Of a stretch of DNA of 64,000 nt, positions 392-14,869 are shown piece by piece. Below the pieces are notes generated by a model. That model saw only the letters and a program-made list of their open reading frames with translations, was not told where the DNA came from and did not search any database. Source of the DNA: an uncultured delta proteobacterium. GTDB lineage: Bacteria > Desulfobacterota > Binatia > UBA9968. The position numbers and the translations under genes are program-made. Within the stretch, counting starts at the first letter, position 1; the number at the start of each line of letters is the position of its first letter. Location of the stretch: contig CAVYTU010000009.1 of NCBI GenBank assembly GCA_963771465.1, positions 64,001 through 128,000 of the forward strand. Direction: 5' to 3'.

Positions 392-2596
392 TTATCCCAC
401 CGTTCCCAACTGCAAACGCTTACCCCATCGATGCCTAAGCAACTCGCGCATGCCGGCCGACTCTTTGCTTTTCAACTGCGGATCTTTATCCAGCCACGCC
501 AGAGCTTCTTGGCGCGCTTCGATTAGCAAACGCGCGTCGCGGATGAGATTGGCCAAACGAAAGTCTACTAATCCTGATTGCCGGGTGCCGAGAAATTCGC
601 CAGGGCCGCGCAGTTGGAGGTCGGCTTCGGCGATTTTGAAGCCATCGGATTCCTTTTCCATTACGCGCAAGCGTTCACCTGCGACCGTGCCGCCGGCGCC
701 GTGATTGACGAGAAAGCACAATCCCGCTGCGCTGCCGCGCCCGACCCGCCCACGCAGCTGATGGAGTTGCGATAGGCCGAAACGCTCGGCGTGCTCGACG
801 ACGATCACCGTTGCGTTCGAAATGTCGATGCCGACTTCGATGACGGTGGTGGCGACGAGAATGGCTAGCTTGCCGTCTCGGAACTCGCGCATGACGGCGT
901 CGCGCTCATCCGTCTTCATCCGGCCATGGGCCAAACCGACGCCGAAATCCTTGAACATCGTCTGGCGCATCTTCTCGGCCATCTGCGTGGCGTCGCGCAC
1001 TTCTTGGAGCTGCTCGGACGCTTCAACTAGGGGCAAGACGACGAAAGCCTGATGGCCGCGCTTGAGCTCTTCGAGCACCAGCGAATAAAGCTGCTTGCGT
1101 TCCCGCTCGGCAAAAACTTTTGTCCGAATCGGCGTCCGCCCCGGCGGCATTTCATCGACGTAGGAGACTTCCATGTCGCCGTAGAGCACCATGGCGAGAC
1201 TGCGCGGGATCGGCGTCGCGCTCATGAGCAATATATGCGGCTCGCGCTTGCCGGCGGCGGCACCGACCAACTGCTGCAGCGACAAGCGCTGCATGACGCC
1301 GAAGCGATGCTGCTCGTCGATGACGCCCAAGCCCATGAGCGGCATGCGCACCTCGTCTTGAATCAAAGCATGGGTGCCGACGATGAATTGGATCTCGCCG
1401 TTGGCGATGCGCGGGAGCAAAACTTTGCGTTCGCGCGCCGGCGTCGACGCCGTGAGCAGCGCAGCTGAAACGCCAAGCGCGTGCGCGAACGTCAGCAAAT
1501 TGCGAAAATGCTGTTCGGCGAGCATTTCTGTCGGCGCCATCCAGACCGCCTGGTGACCCTGTTCGATCACTTGCAGGGAAGCCAGCCAGGCCACCATGGT
1601 TTTGCCGGAACCGACATCGCCTTGCACCAGGCGGTGCATGGGATGATCAGCCGCGAGGTCGTTTTGGATTTCCCCCAGCACCCGCGCTTGCGCGCCGGTG
1701 AGCTTGAACGGCAGTAGCTGGTGCATACGCATGGACAGCTTGTCGTTGCGTCCCGACATTCTGGGACCCGAGCTGCGCCGCCGCCAGTGTTTGCGCAAGC
1801 CCAGGCCCAATTGCAGAAAGAACAACTCTTCGAACACAATCGTGCGATGTGCCGGCGACGCCGCTTCGTTCAGGGCGTCCAAATCGACGTCGAGCGGCGG
1901 TTGGTGCAGCTGCGCCAAGGCGGTGGATACGGATAACAAACCTTGGCGTTTGGCAATCGCTGGCGGCAGCCGATTAGGTACGCAGCCGCCAAACTGTGCG
2001 AGCGCCTGCCCGGCCAATTTACGAATGAACGATAAGGGTAACCCGCCCGGCCGCAAATAAACCGGCAGCACCCGGCGCAGGCTCGCATCGTCGCCGGCGT
2101 CGATCACCTCAAAGTCGGGGTGAACGATGCGCATTCTCATCTGCTGGCCGTGCTCGACTTTGCCGTGGACGAGCAGCGTCTGGCCTTTTGCCAAGCCACT
2201 GACCAAAAAACTTGGCGCGCGATACCAAACTAGATCAAGCGCCGCGGTGTCGTCGCGCACGGTCGCGGTCATCAACTGCATGCGCCGGCGCGGAATGAAT
2301 CGGCTTTGCAACATCACCAACTCGCCGACAAAACTCTCCTCCTGACCCAACTCCGCGGCGGCAATTTTCTTGAGTAGGCGCCGATCCTCGTAACGAAACG
2401 GCAAGTGATAGAGAATATCTTCGACCGTGCTCAAGCCGCTCGCTTCGAGCAACTCGGCGCGCTTGGGTCCGACCCCTTTCAAATCCTGAACCGGTGTCGC
2501 CAAGGCGCGCAGACGTTCGCGCATGGTGACAGGAGGAATCGGCTCGGCGGGATTGTCAGGCGGATTGGCTGTGACGGTAGTCATGGAATCACTCAC
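392..2596 (-). CDS. recG: ATP-dependent DNA helicase RecG
   Basis: LKGVGPKRA, QGDVGSGKT, DEQHRFG, SATPIPR, QLRGRVGRG and DLQLRGPGEFLGTRQSG motifs. Confidence 0.97.
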   Translation of the reverse strand: MSDSMTTVTANPPDNPAEPIPPVTMRERLRALATPVQDLKGVGPKRAELLEASGLSTVEDILYHLPFRYEDRRLLKKIAAAELGQEESFVGELVMLQSRFIPRRRMQLMTATVRDDTAALDLVWYRAPSFLVSGLAKGQTLLVHGKVEHGQQMRMRIVHPDFEVIDAGDDASLRRVLPVYLRPGGLPLSFIRKLAGQALAQFGGCVPNRLPPAIAKRQGLLSVSTALAQLHQPPLDVDLDALNEAASPAHRTIVFEELFFLQLGLGLRKHWRRRSSGPRMSGRNDKLSMRMHQLLPFKLTGAQARVLGEIQNDLAADHPMHRLVQGDVGSGKTMVAWLASLQVIEQGHQAVWMAPTEMLAEQHFRNLLTFAHALGVSAALLTASTPARERKVLLPRIANGEIQFIVGTHALIQDEVRMPLMGLGVIDEQHRFGVMQRLSLQQLVGAAAGKREPHILLMSATPIPRSLAMVLYGDMEVSYVDEMPPGRTPIRTKVFAERERKQLYSLVLEELKRGHQAFVVLPLVEASEQLQEVRDATQMAEKMRQTMFKDFGVGLAHGRMKTDERDAVMREFRDGKLAILVATTVIEVGIDISNATVIVVEHAERFGLSQLHQLRGRVGRGSAAGLCFLVNHGAGGTVAGERLRVMEKESDGFKIAEADLQLRGPGEFLGTRQSGLVDFRLANLIRDARLLIEARQEALAWLDKDPQLKSKESAGMRELLRHRWGKRLQLGTVG

Positions 2597-2656
2597 CGTC
2601 GAGGATCACGACTGTCTTAAAAGCGAATCTCTTATTCCTGCGAATACGAGCGACGA

Positions 2657-5887
<3,231 letters not shown>

Positions 5888-5896
5888 GAGTTACGA

Positions 5897-7057
5897 CTAG
5901 CCTCGATGTTTTGCCATCATGTCGGTGAAGCGTTTGAACAAATAATCGGCGTCATGGGGTCCGGGCGACGATTCCGGGTGATACTGGATGGAAAATAAGG
6001 GTAGTTCGCGATGCGCCAAACCCTCCACCGTGTTGTCGTTGAGATTCAAGTGGGTCACTTGCACCGCGCCGCCAAGGGAATCGGCGTCCACGGCGAAGCC
6101 ATGATTTTGCGCGGTGATTTCGACCTTGCGTGTGGTCAGGTCCATGACCGGCTGATTGCCGCCGTGATGGCCAAACTTGAGTTTGAAAGTTTTGCCGCCA
6201 AGCGCCAAACCCATGATTTGATGCCCGAGGCAAATGCCGAAGATCGGCTTTGTGCCGATGAGCTTTTGCACGTTATCTTTGGCGTAGGGCACCGCATCGG
6301 GATCGCCTGGCCCATTGGAGAGAAAAATTCCATCGGGATTGAGCGCCAGAACTTCTTCAGCCGGCATCGTCGCCGGAACGACTTTAACCTGGCAGCCGGA
6401 CTCGGCGAGATTGCGCAGGATGTTGTACTTGATGCCAAAATCGTAGGCGACGACAAAATAATTCGGCGCAGCGAAGCTCGCTTTGCCGCGCCGCTTAGCG
6501 ATTTTGCCGCCATCGCGCTGCTTGTAACCGCCGCTCAGTCCCCACATCCCTTGGTTCCAGTCGTAGGCCTCGTCGCAGGTCACGTTCTTGACCAGATCGA
6601 CTCCAATCAATCCCGGCGACGCCTTGGCTTTGGCGACAAGCTCCGCCGGATTCGAATTGACCGTTGAGATAATTCCATCCTGGGCGCCGTGATCGCGCAG
6701 ATGGCGCACCAGCGATCGTGTGTCGATGCCCTGAATGCCGACGATGCCGTTCGTTTGCATGTATTCATGCAGCGGCTCGCGCGCGCGCCAGTTGCTCGGC
6801 TGCGCCGTGTAGTCTTTGACGATGAAGCCGCGCACGAAGGGTTTGCGCGATTCGACATCTTCTAAATTAACCCCAACATTGCCGATCTGCGGATAAGTCA
6901 TCGCCACCAATTGCCCTTCGTAAGACGGATCGGTGAGGATTTCTTGGTAGCCGGTCATGCTAGTGTTGAAAACCACCTCGCCGATCGCTTCGCCCTCCGC
7001 GCCGAAAGCGAGACCTTCGAAATATTTGCCGTCCGCCAGTGCTAAAATCGCTTTCAT
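5897..7057 (-). CDS. carA: Carbamoyl-phosphate synthase small subunit
   Basis: [33 protein letters not shown]. Confidence 0.99.
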
Positions 7058-7059
7058 TA

Positions 7060-9012
7060 TTATGACCGCGCCGCCTTTTTTTCCCCACCGGCACTCGGCG
7101 ACTTCACGGCGTCCGCCGGGCCGATGACCGAGAAGATCACCACTTGATCTTTTTCTTCCTGTTCCAAGCCGCGCAGCTTCACCCGTACGCGATCTTTCTC
7201 GGAGCTGGGAATATTCTTGCCGACATAGTTCGGTTTCACGGGGACTTCGCGATGGCCGCGATCGATCAACACCGCCAACCGCACCGACTGCGGCCGGCCC
7301 GAACGAAAAATAATGCTCAGCGCACTCTTGACCGTGCGGCCGGTGTGGACGACGTCGTCGACTAGAATCACTTCGCGGTCTTTGAGGCTGAGCGGCGCGG
7401 CGTCTGGATCGGCTGGCGCCAGACGCTTGATCTCGTCGCCCGAGCCGTAAATTTCGATCTCGCCCAATTCGATTTTACGCTTGCGCTGGGTTTCGATTTC
7501 CGCGGCGATGCGCTGCGCCAACTGCGAGCCGACGCTGCGCACGCCGAGAATCAGCAAGCGATCCGGATCGCGGCAGTCGCGCAAAATTTGCCGGCTCATC
7601 TCCGCCAACGCCGAGGCGATTTCCACGTCATTCATGAGCGCCCGCTGCGGCCCGCTTTTTATCGGCTCGTAGCCAAGCTCTTCGGCTTCCTTGATCGAAT
7701 TGAAGATCGCCAGTTGTTTCTTCTCCAGCCAGCCGTCAATCTGGCCGGCGAGCGAATGATCATAGGAGCAATAGCGTTTGCTCTTCACGTCACCGACAAA
7801 CTGCACCTTGAAGCGATGATCGCAATAAGCGCAGCCAAGGATCAGCGTGCCGTTCTCGCCCACGGTGAACAATTCGAAACGCTTATCGGTCGACACCGGC
7901 TCTTTCAGAGTCACGCAGTTGGGATTGTGACACTGCGGTCCGAGCTTCTCCGGACTTTTGTAGGCGGGCGCTTTGTTAATTGGCGCGGCGGCTTTAGCCT
8001 CACGCCGGTCAAAGAGAAACTTTAGTAGCGCCATGCGCACCGGCACGCCGTAAGCCGCCTGTTTGAAATAAATTCCGCGCCAGTCTCTGTCCAGTTCCGG
8101 CGATAGCTCGTCGACTCGCGGCAGCGGATGCATGACCACGGTGTCTTGAAAACGCTGCTCGCGCAAAAACTCCGGACCGATGGTCGGGTAACTGGCGTCG
8201 GCCGCGCCGTCCTTCATGCGCTCTTTTTGCTTACGCGTCATGTAAAAGGCGTCGTAGCGCAGACCGGTCGCCAACGAATTCAATCGTGCTTGAATCACCT
8301 CATCGACTTGGGTGAAGAGCGCCAACTGATGCGGCTGCTTGGGGGTTAAATATAAGGCGTCAGTTTCCGTCATCACGGCACTCAAGTCATCGGACGCCAT
8401 CGGCGCCAGAGCGTAATCATATTCCCGCTCCAAGCGTTCAAGCACATATTGCGGCAGCTCCATGCCGTTGGCCGCCAAGGTGACCACGTTGGCGCCAAAG
8501 CGCGCCAGCGCGAATACCAGAGAATGAATCGTCCGGCCGTTTTTGAGATCGCCGCACACGACCACTGTCAAACCTTTGAGCGCGCCCTTTTCTTGGCGTA
8601 GCGTGTAGAGATCGCACAGCGTCTGGGTCGGATGCTCATGACCGCCATCGCCGGCATTGATGACCGGCACGTCGGCGTGCTCGGCCATCGCTTGCACCGC
8701 GCCGTCCCAATTGTGGCGCACCACGAGAACGTCGGCGTAGGCCGAAACCACCTTGGCGGTATCCGCCAGGGTTTCTCCTTTCGCCACGGAAGACGACTTC
8801 ATGTCCGAGCAGCTGATCACCGAGCCACCCAAACGCTGCATGGCCGACTCGAACGACAACCGGGTACGCGTGCTCGGCTCGTAGAAGAGCGTCGCCATGA
8901 TCTGGCCGTTTGCCGGACACTCAGACCGTAATCGCTGGGCCGTATCGGCCAAAGAAAAAATCTCTTCGATCTCGTCGTTGGTCAGGTCGGCTATGGAAAT
9001 TAAGCTGCGCAT
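7060..9012 (-). CDS. pyrB: Aspartate carbamoyltransferase fused to a PyrI-type Zn-binding motif and a C-terminal PyrR-like PRTase domain
   Basis: [29 protein letters not shown], then CHNPNC...CAYC, then [13 protein letters not shown]...DRGHREVP...VGKNIP in one frame. Start is 9012 or 9024. Confidence 0.9.
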
Positions 9013-9013
9013 T

Positions 9014-9571
9014 TCAGTTCGCATTTCGGCCTTGCCAATCGGCGACGATCACTTGGTCGACGCCATCCGACTCTGCCAACAATACGTTGACCCGTTGGCC
9101 ATCCTGGGCATCGATATTTTTACCGACAACGTCGGCACGGATCGGCAGCTCCCGGGCGCCGCGATCGATCAAGACCGCGACAAGAATTCGTTTGGGCCGG
9201 CCAAGCCGCTCCACCGCCTCCATCGCCGCGCGAATGGTCCGGCCGCGAAAGATCACGTCGTCGATCAGGACTACGACTTTGTCGTCGACCGCGACTTGGA
9301 CTTCGAAAGCGCCGACAGCCGGCAATTCCGATCGCTGGCTTCGGTCATCACGATAGGGCGTGACATCGATAACGCCGACCGGCGGCGCCAGGTGATTCAT
9401 TTCCTCAAGCTTGCGCGCCAGCCGGCGCGCCAAATGCACCCCGCGTGAGCGAATCCCGATGAGCACCAATTCACGAGGTGTTGACGCCTTCTCGACAATC
9501 TCATGCGCCATCCGCGTGATGACCCGGACGAGATCGTCGCCCTGCAAGACAATTTTTCGCTCTTGGGCCAT
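9014..9571 (-). CDS. pyrR: Pyrimidine operon attenuation protein / UPRTase PyrR
   Basis: ITRMAHEI, GIRSRG, PYRDD, DDVIFRGRT, DRGARELPI. Confidence 0.93.
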   Translation of the reverse strand: MAQERKIVLQGDDLVRVITRMAHEIVEKASTPRELVLIGIRSRGVHLARRLARKLEEMNHLAPPVGVIDVTPYRDDRSQRSELPAVGAFEVQVAVDDKVVVLIDDVIFRGRTIRAAMEAVERLGRPKRILVAVLIDRGARELPIRADVVGKNIDAQDGQRVNVLLAESDGVDQVIVADWQGRNAN

Positions 9572-13246: not shown

Positions 13247-14869
13247 ATGCGGATTTTTCTTATCCATATACGCGACCCCCAGTTCTATGCTCTACCGGCG
13301 GCGACCCGCGCAAAGAACGGCAATATACGCGTGATGGGTTTCCCGCCGATCGGGATTATGTCGCTTTCCGCGGTGGTCAAACGCGCCGGGCACGAGTGCG
13401 TGATGTTTGATCAGGCCAATCCGGAGACACCGAATGAGGTCATTGTTGACGAGATTCGCAGACAACAACCCGACCTGGTCGGGTTGAGTTTTTTGAGCAC
13501 GACGAGTTACCCGTACGCCAAGATCCTCGCCCGTCAAATTCGCGCCGCCGATTCCCGTATCCGCTTGGCCTTTGGCGGCGTGTTTGCCACGTTGAACGCC
13601 GAACTCGTCAAGCAGCAGTGTCCAGAGGTGAATTTCGTCTGCCGCGGCGACGGCGAACAGCTGATCCTCGATTTGCTCGAAAGATTGGATGATCCTGACG
13701 ACGTCGCGGGTCTCACTTGGGAAAAAGATGGCCGCGCCGTTCACAACCCGAATCGTGCGCTGGATCGCGACCTTGATCAATGGCCGTTTCCGGACCGAGA
13801 GAGCCTACCTTTGGATTTTGTCGAGTCGATGCCCCTCGATGTGCCTGCGGTGCTGTCGATGGAGCGCTTCACCACGATGCAGACTTCGCGTGGATGTCCG
13901 TGGCCGTGCGTTTTTTGCGATATCCCGATCTTCAATGAAGGCAAGTGGCGCTCACGCAGCCCCCAGCACGTTGTCGACGAGTTCAAGCACTTGCAGTCGC
14001 TGGATTATGGCGCGGTCTATTTTGTCGACGATCATTTTCTCCTCCAACCGAAGCGTATCGAGGCGATCTGCAAGGGCATCAACGACAACGGAATCAACAT
14101 CCAATGGGGCTGCGAGGGTCGCGTGGATTCCACCGCGCAGCACCTTTTTCCAGCCATGGCGAAAGCCCATTGTCGCACGCTGATGTTCGGGATCGAGAGC
14201 GGCAGCCAGAAAGTACTCGATCGATTAAGGAAAGATCAAACGCTGGAGCAGGTCGAGGTAGCGGTCAACAGGGCCAAGCAAGCCGGAATCGAGATCGTTC
14301 ATGGTTTTTTTGTCGTCGGCAATCCAGACGAAACCGTCGAAGATATACGCGCGACGTTCGACTTTGCGGCCAAACTCCGGTTGGACACGTTCGGATTTAA
14401 CCGGCTGTGCGTTTACCGCGGTACGCCGCTGTGGAAGGAGTACGTGGGACGCGGCTTGGTCGACGATGCGAAGGACTGGTTCAAGTACTTTAAATGCTCG
14501 GAGATCGATCCGACCTGCCTGCCGGGTCCGGTAATCAACGCCGAACGTAGCGCCGGATTCCGCAAAATATTCCGCCACAAATTAACCCACTATCCGATGC
14601 AGACGCTTCGATTGCTGCGGCGCTTCATGCGTCACATGCCGCTTCGCGATGTCGTCTACCTCATTATTAAACCCTTCCTCGGACAAAAGCAGGGGCCGAC
14701 CAAGAACGAGATGCTTTCGCGTGCCGTCGAGCATCGCGCGCTCAAAGATGCGGCGGCGAAGTTCACGACGCTCCCCGATGAATTGCTAGCCGACGAGAAT
14801 CGGAGACCATTATCCAGAGATGTAGTCCATGCAGCGGAGCGAAGAATTCTAGGTGAGAGATCGATTTGA
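13247..14869 (+). CDS. Cobalamin-binding radical SAM protein
   Basis: N-terminal B12-binding-like domain (PPIGIMSL...GG...RGDGE), TSRGCPWPCVFC, GIESGSQ. Confidence 0.92.
   Translation: MRIFLIHIRDPQFYALPAATRAKNGNIRVMGFPPIGIMSLSAVVKRAGHECVMFDQANPETPNEVIVDEIRRQQPDLVGLSFLSTTSYPYAKILARQIRAADSRIRLAFGGVFATLNAELVKQQCPEVNFVCRGDGEQLILDLLERLDDPDDVAGLTWEKDGRAVHNPNRALDRDLDQWPFPDRESLPLDFVESMPLDVPAVLSMERFTTMQTSRGCPWPCVFCDIPIFNEGKWRSRSPQHVVDEFKHLQSLDYGAVYFVDDHFLLQPKRIEAICKGINDNGINIQWGCEGRVDSTAQHLFPAMAKAHCRTLMFGIESGSQKVLDRLRKDQTLEQVEVAVNRAKQAGIEIVHGFFVVGNPDETVEDIRATFDFAAKLRLDTFGFNRLCVYRGTPLWKEYVGRGLVDDAKDWFKYFKCSEIDPTCLPGPVINAERSAGFRKIFRHKLTHYPMQTLRLLRRFMRHMPLRDVVYLIIKPFLGQKQGPTKNEMLSRAVEHRALKDAAAKFTTLPDELLADENRRPLSRDVVHAAERRILGERSI

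Follow-up and report, generated by a model that had tools for sequence, protein, structure and literature searches.

A single-chain aspartate transcarbamylase of uncultured Binatia with a PyrI-type zinc domain and a PyrR-derived domain, a candidate nucleotide sensor

Introduction

Aspartate transcarbamylase (ATCase) is a model system for allostery, and in Escherichia coli the zinc domain of PyrI docks the regulatory chain onto the catalytic chain. Here we describe a gene in which the zinc docking domain is kept and a phosphoribosyltransferase (PRTase) fold follows it. The gene lies at 7060..9024 on the minus strand of a 64,000-nucleotide stretch of DNA, hereafter the window (positions 64,001 to 128,000 of contig CAVYTU010000009.1, assembly GCA_963771465.1), from an uncultured delta proteobacterium of the class Binatia. 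Its predicted product joins an ATCase catalytic domain, a PyrI-type zinc domain and a domain derived from PyrR, which we call PyrR'. We propose, with a probability of about 60%, that PyrR' is a PyrR-derived pseudoenzyme that replaces the PyrI allosteric domain as a dimerising nucleotide sensor.

The available portion of a 2015 transcarbamylase review describes the known prokaryotic ATCases as a PyrI-regulated dodecamer of separate or fused chains, a dodecamer associated with dihydroorotase (DHOase), and an unregulated trimer; neither PyrR nor phosphoribosyl occurs in that portion (PMC4581275). The same review (PMC4581275) credits the fused PyrB-PyrI of Thermotoga maritima to Chen et al. 1998. 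As for PyrR, the portion available of a second review states that uridine mono- and triphosphate (UMP and UTP) promote its binding to RNA, that the guanosine nucleotides GMP and GTP oppose it, and that the RNA is bound by a basic concave surface (PMC7430163). Literature searches aimed at the topic, with most subscription journals outside their coverage, found no description of an ATCase-PyrR architecture. This agrees with a preliminary description of the window, made from the letters alone, whose author knew of no ATCase built in this way; regulation of ATCase through PyrR' would be an undescribed mechanism.

Results

Architecture of the fusion

The fusion gene is one open reading frame (ORF) of 654 aa from the ATG at 9024, and the ORF list of the window showed no internal stop. 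Since most homologues begin, in the alignment, at the residues that follow from the ATG at 9012, the real start is probably there, which gives a protein of 650 aa; depending on the ATG chosen, the start of the fusion overlaps or abuts the stop of the pyrR gene upstream. Four Pfam models matched in the single chain, namely OTCace_N at residues 6-144 (E 4.3e-51), OTCace with its best stretch at residues 265-336 (E 1.2e-18), PyrI_C (PF02748) at residues 364-406 (31.4 bits, cut-off 23.4, E 1.6e-07) and Pribosyltran at residues 468-606 (E 3.9e-18). The order of parts in the chain is catalytic domain with an insertion, tether, PyrI zinc domain, Ada-like module and the PyrR-derived PRTase domain PyrR'. 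The preliminary description had read the locus as a single uninterrupted frame of three parts, an ATCase, a zinc motif and a PyrR-like PRTase, and had suggested Pfam as the check. The frame and the three parts stand, with the residue ranges right to within a few residues by Pfam and NCBIfam; the insertion, the Ada-like module, the free pyrR upstream with its RNA site and a relative that lacks PyrR' had been missed.

Conservation was scored in an alignment of 75 full-length members, to which all site counts of the fused family refer. The ratio of nonsynonymous to synonymous substitutions (dN/dS) was 0.07-0.08 in the catalytic domains, 0.11 in the insertion, 0.17 in the zinc domain, 0.12 in the Ada-like module, 0.14 in PyrR' and 0.58 in the tether, values that are rough because dS, at about 1.0-1.3, is near saturation. 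The architecture appears to be widely kept under purifying selection. Database entries for fusion proteins are named 'aspartate carbamoyltransferase catalytic subunit', 'pyrimidine operon attenuation protein/uracil phosphoribosyltransferase' or 'phosphoribosyltransferase family protein'. The fusion architecture corrects the current annotation of these proteins.

PyrR' compared with free PyrR

PyrR' (aa 459-635; 7120..7650, minus strand) was delimited by Pfam, NCBIfam and matches to PyrR structures. The PyrR equivalog NF003549 matched residues 461-630 at 150.3 bits (cut-off 138), and the other PyrR models, NF003547, NF003548, NF003546 and NF003545, scored under their cut-offs. The domain aligned over the entire PyrR fold of solved structures (E 2.5e-32 to 3.8e-31), in keeping with the PyrR-like identity that it had been given from the letters. 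A free-standing pyrR of 185 aa, of the type that serves as RNA-binding regulator and uracil phosphoribosyltransferase, lies next to the fusion at 9014..9571 on the minus strand (NF003549, 199.2 bits against the same cut-off), and its product shares 33% identity with PyrR'.

The fused domains were compared with 70 orthologues of free PyrR at presumed RNA-binding positions, numbered after Bacillus subtilis PyrR. The T18 position, A474 in the window protein, is Thr in 0/75 fused domains and in 15/70 free proteins (S in 19 and K in 16). At the R19 position (E475) a basic residue was found in 8/75 fused domains, against Arg in 70/70 free proteins, and at the H22 position (R478) His was found in 0/75 and 63/70 respectively. 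The R27 position (D483) is Asp or Glu in 72/75 fused domains and Lys or Arg in 61/70 free proteins. Likewise, the (Y/F)RDD motif of the flexible loop is absent from the window protein and present in 2/75 fused domains versus 70/70 free proteins, and the length of this loop varies among the fused domains. Free PyrR keeps its G-R-T loop across the 70 orthologues. The nucleotide pocket, by contrast, is kept in PyrR': D556, D557, G562 and T564 are each present in 75/75 fused domains, and the hood D588-R589-G590-H591-R592 (DRGHR) in 73-75/75. Judged by these counts, PyrR' has lost the presumed RNA-binding signature and the (Y/F)RDD loop of PyrR and has kept the phosphate loop and the hood of the nucleotide pocket.

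In trees, fused and free copies formed separate groups with parallel sub-clades, and were therefore inherited together. The separation received 81-93 in the Shimodaira-Hasegawa-like approximate likelihood ratio test (SH-aLRT) in a quick tree of 85 rows, and a quick tree of 50 rows placed all 14 fused copies on one side of a branch with a support of 59. These two quick trees did not decide whether the fused copy originated from the neighbouring pyrR.

Predicted self-association

The regulatory half (aa 346-640) was modelled as a pair of identical chains, using a 72-row alignment and three controls. The dimer model reached an interaction prediction score from aligned errors (ipSAE) of 0.52 versus 0.00 for the best control; the same mark was reached by 20/30 proteins solved as same-chain pairs and by 1/23 solved as single chains. 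The dimer runs agreed in at least 87% of contacts, and the partner had a predicted local distance difference test score (pLDDT) of at least 78. The predicted interface lay wholly inside PyrR', at residues 554, 565-566, 569-570, 573, 579-583 and 592-599. The model supports a symmetric PyrR' homodimer. The oligomer modelling that the preliminary description had put forward covered this dimer of the regulatory half.

Tether, zinc domain and Ada-like module

The catalytic domain is followed by a variable tether (aa 341-356; 7957..8004, minus strand), which was set by hypervariable columns (residues 340-356 are hypervariable across the family) and by a pLDDT of 54 for the block 341-350. About 24 residues separate the C-terminal helix of the ATCase from the first cysteine of the zinc domain. 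The PyrI allosteric domain, PF01948, had no match in the protein or in the whole genome, with control genomes positive in 7/14 cases. As the preliminary description had remarked, the linker is too short to hold that domain.

The PyrI-type zinc domain (aa 357-413; 7786..7956, minus strand) matched PF02748 at 31.4-33.9 bits and aligned with E. coli PyrI residues 109-150. Its C365, C370, C398 and C401 align with C109, C114, C138 and C141 of PyrI, and all four are present in 75/75 family members. Residues 350-462 were folded alone (pLDDT 78.6), and the model was searched with Foldseek and, independently of it, with VIA against 48,161 chains. PyrI chains were the top Foldseek result (4kh0_B, E 0.048, 43 columns, root-mean-square deviation (rmsd) 1.4), with no match reaching E 0.001. 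For model residues 2-58, VIA returned PyrI chains at Z 6.3 and 5.3 (2be7_D with Z 6.3, rmsd 2.6 and 49 aligned), in a search where Z below 8 may reflect merely a common arrangement.

Between the zinc domain and PyrR' lies a module without cysteines (aa 414-458; 7651..7785, minus strand) that runs strands, helix, strand, helix. PF02805 (Ada_Zn_binding) scored on it with E 0.09 and 13.2 bits, under the cut-off of 23. In VIA, model residues 58-109 found the N-terminal domain of Ada (N-Ada; 1u8b_A, Z 5.1, rmsd 2.0, 47 aligned; 1eyf_A, Z 4.5), and the next unrelated row had Z 3.9, all of these under the same mark of 8. W432, F441, A447 and P454 of the module are invariant in the 75-member alignment, and no conserved Cys quartet was found in aa 414-458. 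The weak resemblance to Ada may be taken as a lead, and we use Ada-like as a description and not as a statement of family membership; the module is probably merely a small adaptor of similar topology.

Catalytic domain and its insertion

The ATCase catalytic domain (aa 1-340; 8005..9024, minus strand) is 37% identical to E. coli PyrB, with all catalytic residues present. It scored above the cut-offs of the NCBIfam ATCase equivalogs TIGR00670 (292.6 bits, cut-off 236.95) and NF002032 (279.2 bits, cut-off 263). Alignment to E. coli PyrB showed that STRTR, the Ser and Lys of the 80s loop, RH, HPTQ, GR, TRxQ and HPLP are all kept, and 13 catalytic or substrate sites were invariant in 75/75 members. 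The catalytic list is one that we take to comprise E. coli S52, T53, R54, T55, K84, R105, H134, Q137, R167, R229, Q231 and L267. The best-scoring solved relatives were the archaeal class-B ATCases 2rgw (245 bits) and 1ml4 (240 bits), with M. jannaschii and P. abyssi as the source species of the best matches and the B. subtilis enzyme at 137 bits. The catalytic site is intact.

A 36-residue insertion (aa 226-261; 8242..8349, minus strand) appeared as a gap in the E. coli PyrB alignment, between the strand matching E. coli ...ILY and the catalytic TRxQ motif. It opens with a degenerate repeat of the TRxQ-strand motif, LYLTPxxPHQ, and few stretches of the protein are better conserved (Y225 75/75, P228 74/75, H232 73/75, Q233 73/75, L236 75/75). 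The AlphaFold pLDDT was below 50 for residues 231-245 of the insertion, and the nearest ATCase of normal size (P0380) is without it. In the E. coli enzyme this region takes in the 240s loop, whose movement is part of the T-to-R transition. The insertion is a candidate receiver of a regulatory signal.

Integrity of the chain

The source genome comprises 6.9 Mb in 19 contigs and is 99.36% complete. It contains two OTCace_N matches, the fusion gene and a 336-aa frame on another contig, and PF02748, searched genome-wide with a positive control, matched the fusion gene only. The fusion is the only predicted ATCase of the genome. No clear Upp-type uracil phosphoribosyltransferase (UPRTase) was found in the genome (PF14681, best 26.8 bits, cut-off 27), so uracil salvage may depend on one of the PyrR copies.

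Related loci were drawn from a scan of one genome per species, and locus counts refer to the best 80 of 201 relatives. The complete chain was found in one frame in 71/80 of these loci. In six of the nine incomplete ones the contig breaks off at the 5' side, and in one at the 3' side; another is split in frame, and in the last the match starts at residue 38. A 1648-nt contig from a soil metagenome run (X4) aligns over 7249-8896 without gaps and differs by 17 substitutions. Contigs of an RNA-library run (X10) cover 7602-8087 and 8075-8830 with no indels listed; an RNA library can contain DNA, and these contigs are therefore no proof of transcription. With the chain whole and in frame at 71/80 loci and the domain junctions spanned by independent contigs, an assembly error is not the source of the fusion. 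The preliminary description had named a stop or a misassembly between the domains as what would overturn its reading, and had suggested the search of related genomes; neither a stop nor a misassembly was seen, and the same chain recurs.

Several apparent exceptions were followed. A joint in the X4 data that would skip 7117->8162 was rejected, its shorter side being just 21 letters. P0122 and P0129, considered as free chains of zinc domain and PyrR', were rejected as fragments that start at an internal Met of the C-terminal helix of the ATCase (MALLKFL...). Shorter forms that retain the catalytic part were also sought, and gave just fragments, frameshifted entries and ordinary ATCases of 310 aa. 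P0286, P0304 and P0338 end out of frame, and the locus L008 is split into two frames at 3050-4751; some of these lie on very long contigs. These falsely 'short' ATCases are probably assembly frameshifts.

Distribution and relatives without PyrR'

A relative of the zinc-plus-linker part is encoded by 201 species genomes. By their titles, the best 80 loci divide into 34 Candidatus Binatia or Binataceae, 34 Deltaproteobacteria or delta proteobacterium, and 12 other. Of 8000 candidates scored from the protein database, 491 were related to the C-terminal half at E<=0.001, and among the best 120 of them 106 are 635-672 aa long and 14 are shorter pieces. Within the class of the window, the zinc-linker part was found in 173/401 sampled genomes, or in 165/393 without eight genomes flagged unpublished (G632, G682, G504, G663, G635, G499, G642 and G378). 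It was present in 5/20 families (f1 55/63, f100 4/4, f102 1/1, f6 93/94 and f104 19/19), with none in the other 15. A phylum-wide sample gave matches in 6/301 genomes, of which one belongs to another class.

Five complete genomes of the class without the fusion had no PyrI_C either. One of these five (G143) encodes an ordinary PyrB of 329 aa (NF002032, 417 bits). In G320, which is of the same order, on one contig and 99% complete, the best match to the ATCase catalytic domain (L088) was an ornithine transcarbamylase (OTCase; NF001986, 427 bits), and no ATCase was found with this query. Divergent full-length members from metagenomes (P0137 and P0154) have 35-36% identity in the regulatory half; they had no close counterpart among the labelled partial proteins, and in the ESM Atlas just a cluster of ordinary PyrR, at 0.75, was returned for them. 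The insertion motif occurs in partial proteins that bear the labels Dehalococcoidales and Planctomycetota.

The single match from beyond the class, in a genome of another class of the phylum (G006), is a PyrR'-less ATCase of 452 aa at 2273-3679 on the minus strand of its locus (L089; G006:C352). The insertion motif, the tether, the zinc domain with its four Cys and the Ada-like end are all present in it as in the fusion. Two homologues from metagenomes, 459 and 461 aa long (group P0398-P0400, 452-461 aa), end alike and have no PRTase domain.

Operon and leader RNA

On the minus strand the gene order is a PyrR-binding leader, free pyrR, the fusion, carA, carB and recG. The leader RNA (RF00515; 9570..9683, minus strand) was matched over model positions 1-115 at 48.1 bits (E 2.5e-05 to 6.6e-06). 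It consists of a binding hairpin and then a terminator hairpin with a U-run that ends exactly at the pyrR AUG (AAAGACUC...GAGUCUUUUUUU). RF00515 was also found upstream of pyrR in 4/5 related loci at 48.7-51.9 bits; the gathering score is 54, and all leader matches, in the window and in relatives, fall below it. An Rfam scan of the whole window at the gathering threshold gave no match. Because the window and 4/5 related loci score just below gathering, annotation at default settings probably misses many Binatia forms of RF00515.

Free pyrR lies directly upstream of the fusion in 69/71 complete loci, with a 4-nt overlap in 18/69. carA (5897..7057, minus strand; Pfam CPSase_sm_chain and GATase) follows the fusion, an order conserved in related loci. 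carB (2657..5887, minus strand) was assigned as an ORF and by BLASTP of ORFs from related loci against the window proteins, and recG (392-2596, minus strand; Pfam) lies downstream of carB.

Distant loci labelled Binataceae (6861-8213 on the plus strand of L066, and others of L054-L082) have a DHOase gene (Amidohydro_1 / DHOase) between the fusion and carA, which is absent from this gap in the window's own family. One locus (L028, 6901-11136, plus strand) holds carA and carB in one frame of 1412 aa, CarA at residues 7-324 and CarB at 330-1405, which reflects either a genuine fusion of CarA and CarB or the loss of a stop codon in the assembly. Downstream of the pyr region of the window, at 13247-14869 on the plus strand, lies a gene for a 540-aa B12-binding radical SAM protein, which has no bearing on the fusion.

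Discussion

Proposed mechanism

We favour a sensor function for PyrR' in which the domain, as a pseudoenzyme, would still bind nucleotides, would no longer bind RNA, and would dimerise. Its ligands, by analogy with PyrR, may be the pyrimidine nucleotides UMP and UTP, possibly with purine nucleotides or phosphoribosyl pyrophosphate (PRPP) as antagonists. Three PyrR' dimers might bridge two catalytic trimers through the zinc domains, as PyrI dimers do. To reach the catalytic domains, the ligand signal would travel by way of the Ada-like module and the zinc domain, with the insertion perhaps taking part. Attenuation at the leader RNA would fall to free PyrR and control of enzyme activity to PyrR', the two being paralogous sensors of the same pool. 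We infer the identity of the ligand, the coupling and the quaternary structure. The fuller reading, that this is a natural domain replacement in which PyrR' brought along the effector logic of PyrR (UMP/UTP versus GMP/GTP, perhaps PRPP), with a relay through the zinc domain, Ada-like module and insertion and with dual control of RNA and enzyme, is a tentative one to which we give slightly less than even odds. If it is true, the PyrR'-less relatives represent a stage in the build-up of the architecture, before the sensor was gained or after it was lost.

Several points weigh against the sensor reading. The G006 form and the two metagenome homologues stop right after the Ada-like module, without PyrR', so the zinc and Ada-like tail has a function for which no sensor is required. 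The Arg of the phosphate loop is variable in PyrR' (R 43, W 24, K 7 and M 1, of 75), and because of this one member in three may lack ligand binding or bind ligand in another way. The roles given to B. subtilis PyrR T18, R19, H22, R27, R141, R146 and K152 are presumed ones. The positive dimer result may reflect likeness to solved PyrR dimers, and it is silent on the bridging of trimers. The AlphaFold model had a predicted template modelling score (pTM) of 0.68, and we assume from homology that the zinc domain docks on the catalytic domain. The near-saturated dS, as noted above, makes the measures of selection coarse ones.

Alternative explanations

The strongest competitor, though an unlikely one, is that PyrR' is an assembly module only, which staples two trimers together for stability or cooperativity, the pocket being a structural relic that passes no signal. 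The modelled dimer fits such a role, its predicted interface including the conserved R592-N599, and some of the conserved pocket residues also fall in that interface. The variable Arg of the phosphate loop and the PyrR'-less relatives, in which the tail is useful without a sensor, point the same way. However, the two Asp, G562, T564 and DRGHR are kept at 73-75/75, which is more than a pure scaffold should need.

It is improbable that PyrR' is an active UPRTase, which would give the protein two enzyme functions, one in de novo synthesis and one in salvage. The available part of one review assigns UPRTase activity to PyrR proteins (PMC7430163). The PRPP-type loop is kept in PyrR', and the Upp-family matches of the genome are borderline, at the 26.8 bits given above. 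Set against this are the (Y/F)RDD motif, in 2/75 fused domains versus 70/70 free proteins, the varying length of its loop, and the Trp that takes the place of the phosphate-loop Arg in 24/75 members; the neighbouring free PyrR could, moreover, supply the activity.

More doubtful still is a part for PyrR' in gene control, whether as a trigger enzyme that binds the pyr leader RNA or by pairing with free PyrR and titrating it. pyrR and the fusion are adjacent, and in some loci overlap, in the counts given for the complete loci, both proteins are homologous dimer formers, and a PyrR RNA site is present. But the fused copy has acidic or neutral residues at positions of the RNA-binding helix (that of R27 is Asp or Glu in 72/75), and the fused and free copies have been separate clades since before the families split.

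We dismiss an artefact, a misassembly or missed stop joining separate pyrB, pyrI-like and pyrR genes, in spite of the few short or out-of-frame entries (P0286, P0304, P0338) and the split frame of L008, as 71/80 loci from independent assemblies, megabase contigs among them, keep one frame, independent contigs bridge all junctions without indels, and the short forms either begin inside an ATCase helix, at an internal Met, or end out of frame.

Together, the sensor reading that we favour would make this a widespread natural form of ATCase in which the zinc docking domain was kept and the effector domain was swapped for an unrelated nucleotide-binding fold. It would be a ready-made experiment on the modularity of allosteric coupling, on the conversion of an RNA-binding regulator into an enzyme-bound sensor, and on the control of expression and activity by one ligand pool through paralogues. 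The bearers are uncultured soil bacteria (Binatia), in which this may be a new feedback route on pyrimidine synthesis.

Comparison with described systems

Bacillus PyrR (1a3c, 4p82) shares with PyrR' the whole fold, the DD...TG.T loop and the DRGHRE.P hood, and its dimer is predicted for PyrR' as well; PyrR' differs in standing at the C-terminus of an enzyme and in being without the basic RNA-binding positions and (Y/F)RDD. E. coli N-Ada (1u8b, 1eyf; PF02805) resembles aa 407-458 weakly in sequence and fold, whereas the Ada-like module is without the four-Cys metal site and scores under the membership threshold. The PyrR'-less ATCase of G006 (L089) has in common with the fusion the insertion motif, there YITPSKSHQ, the tether, the four-Cys zinc domain and the Ada-like end; it differs in having pyrC directly after it, no PyrR' and, in the locus read, no pyrR directly upstream.

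The PyrB-PyrI of T. maritima likewise holds catalytic and regulatory parts in one chain. That chain keeps the whole of PyrI, allosteric and zinc domains, unlike the fusion, which is without the allosteric domain and scored 89.9 bits on the model for Thermotoga-type fused PyrB-PyrI (NF009916; cut-off 800). With the class B enzymes of E. coli and archaea (PyrB6-PyrI6), the fusion shares the catalytic residues, the four zinc Cys, and the N-x-N and Glu between the Cys. In contrast to them it is one polypeptide, with the zinc domain directly after the catalytic chain and a 36-aa insertion in the aspartate domain, and its putative effector domain stands after the zinc domain instead of before it and has a PRTase fold in place of the PyrI allosteric domain. 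Although it fails on that defining domain, the fusion protein appears to be most like a class B ATCase.

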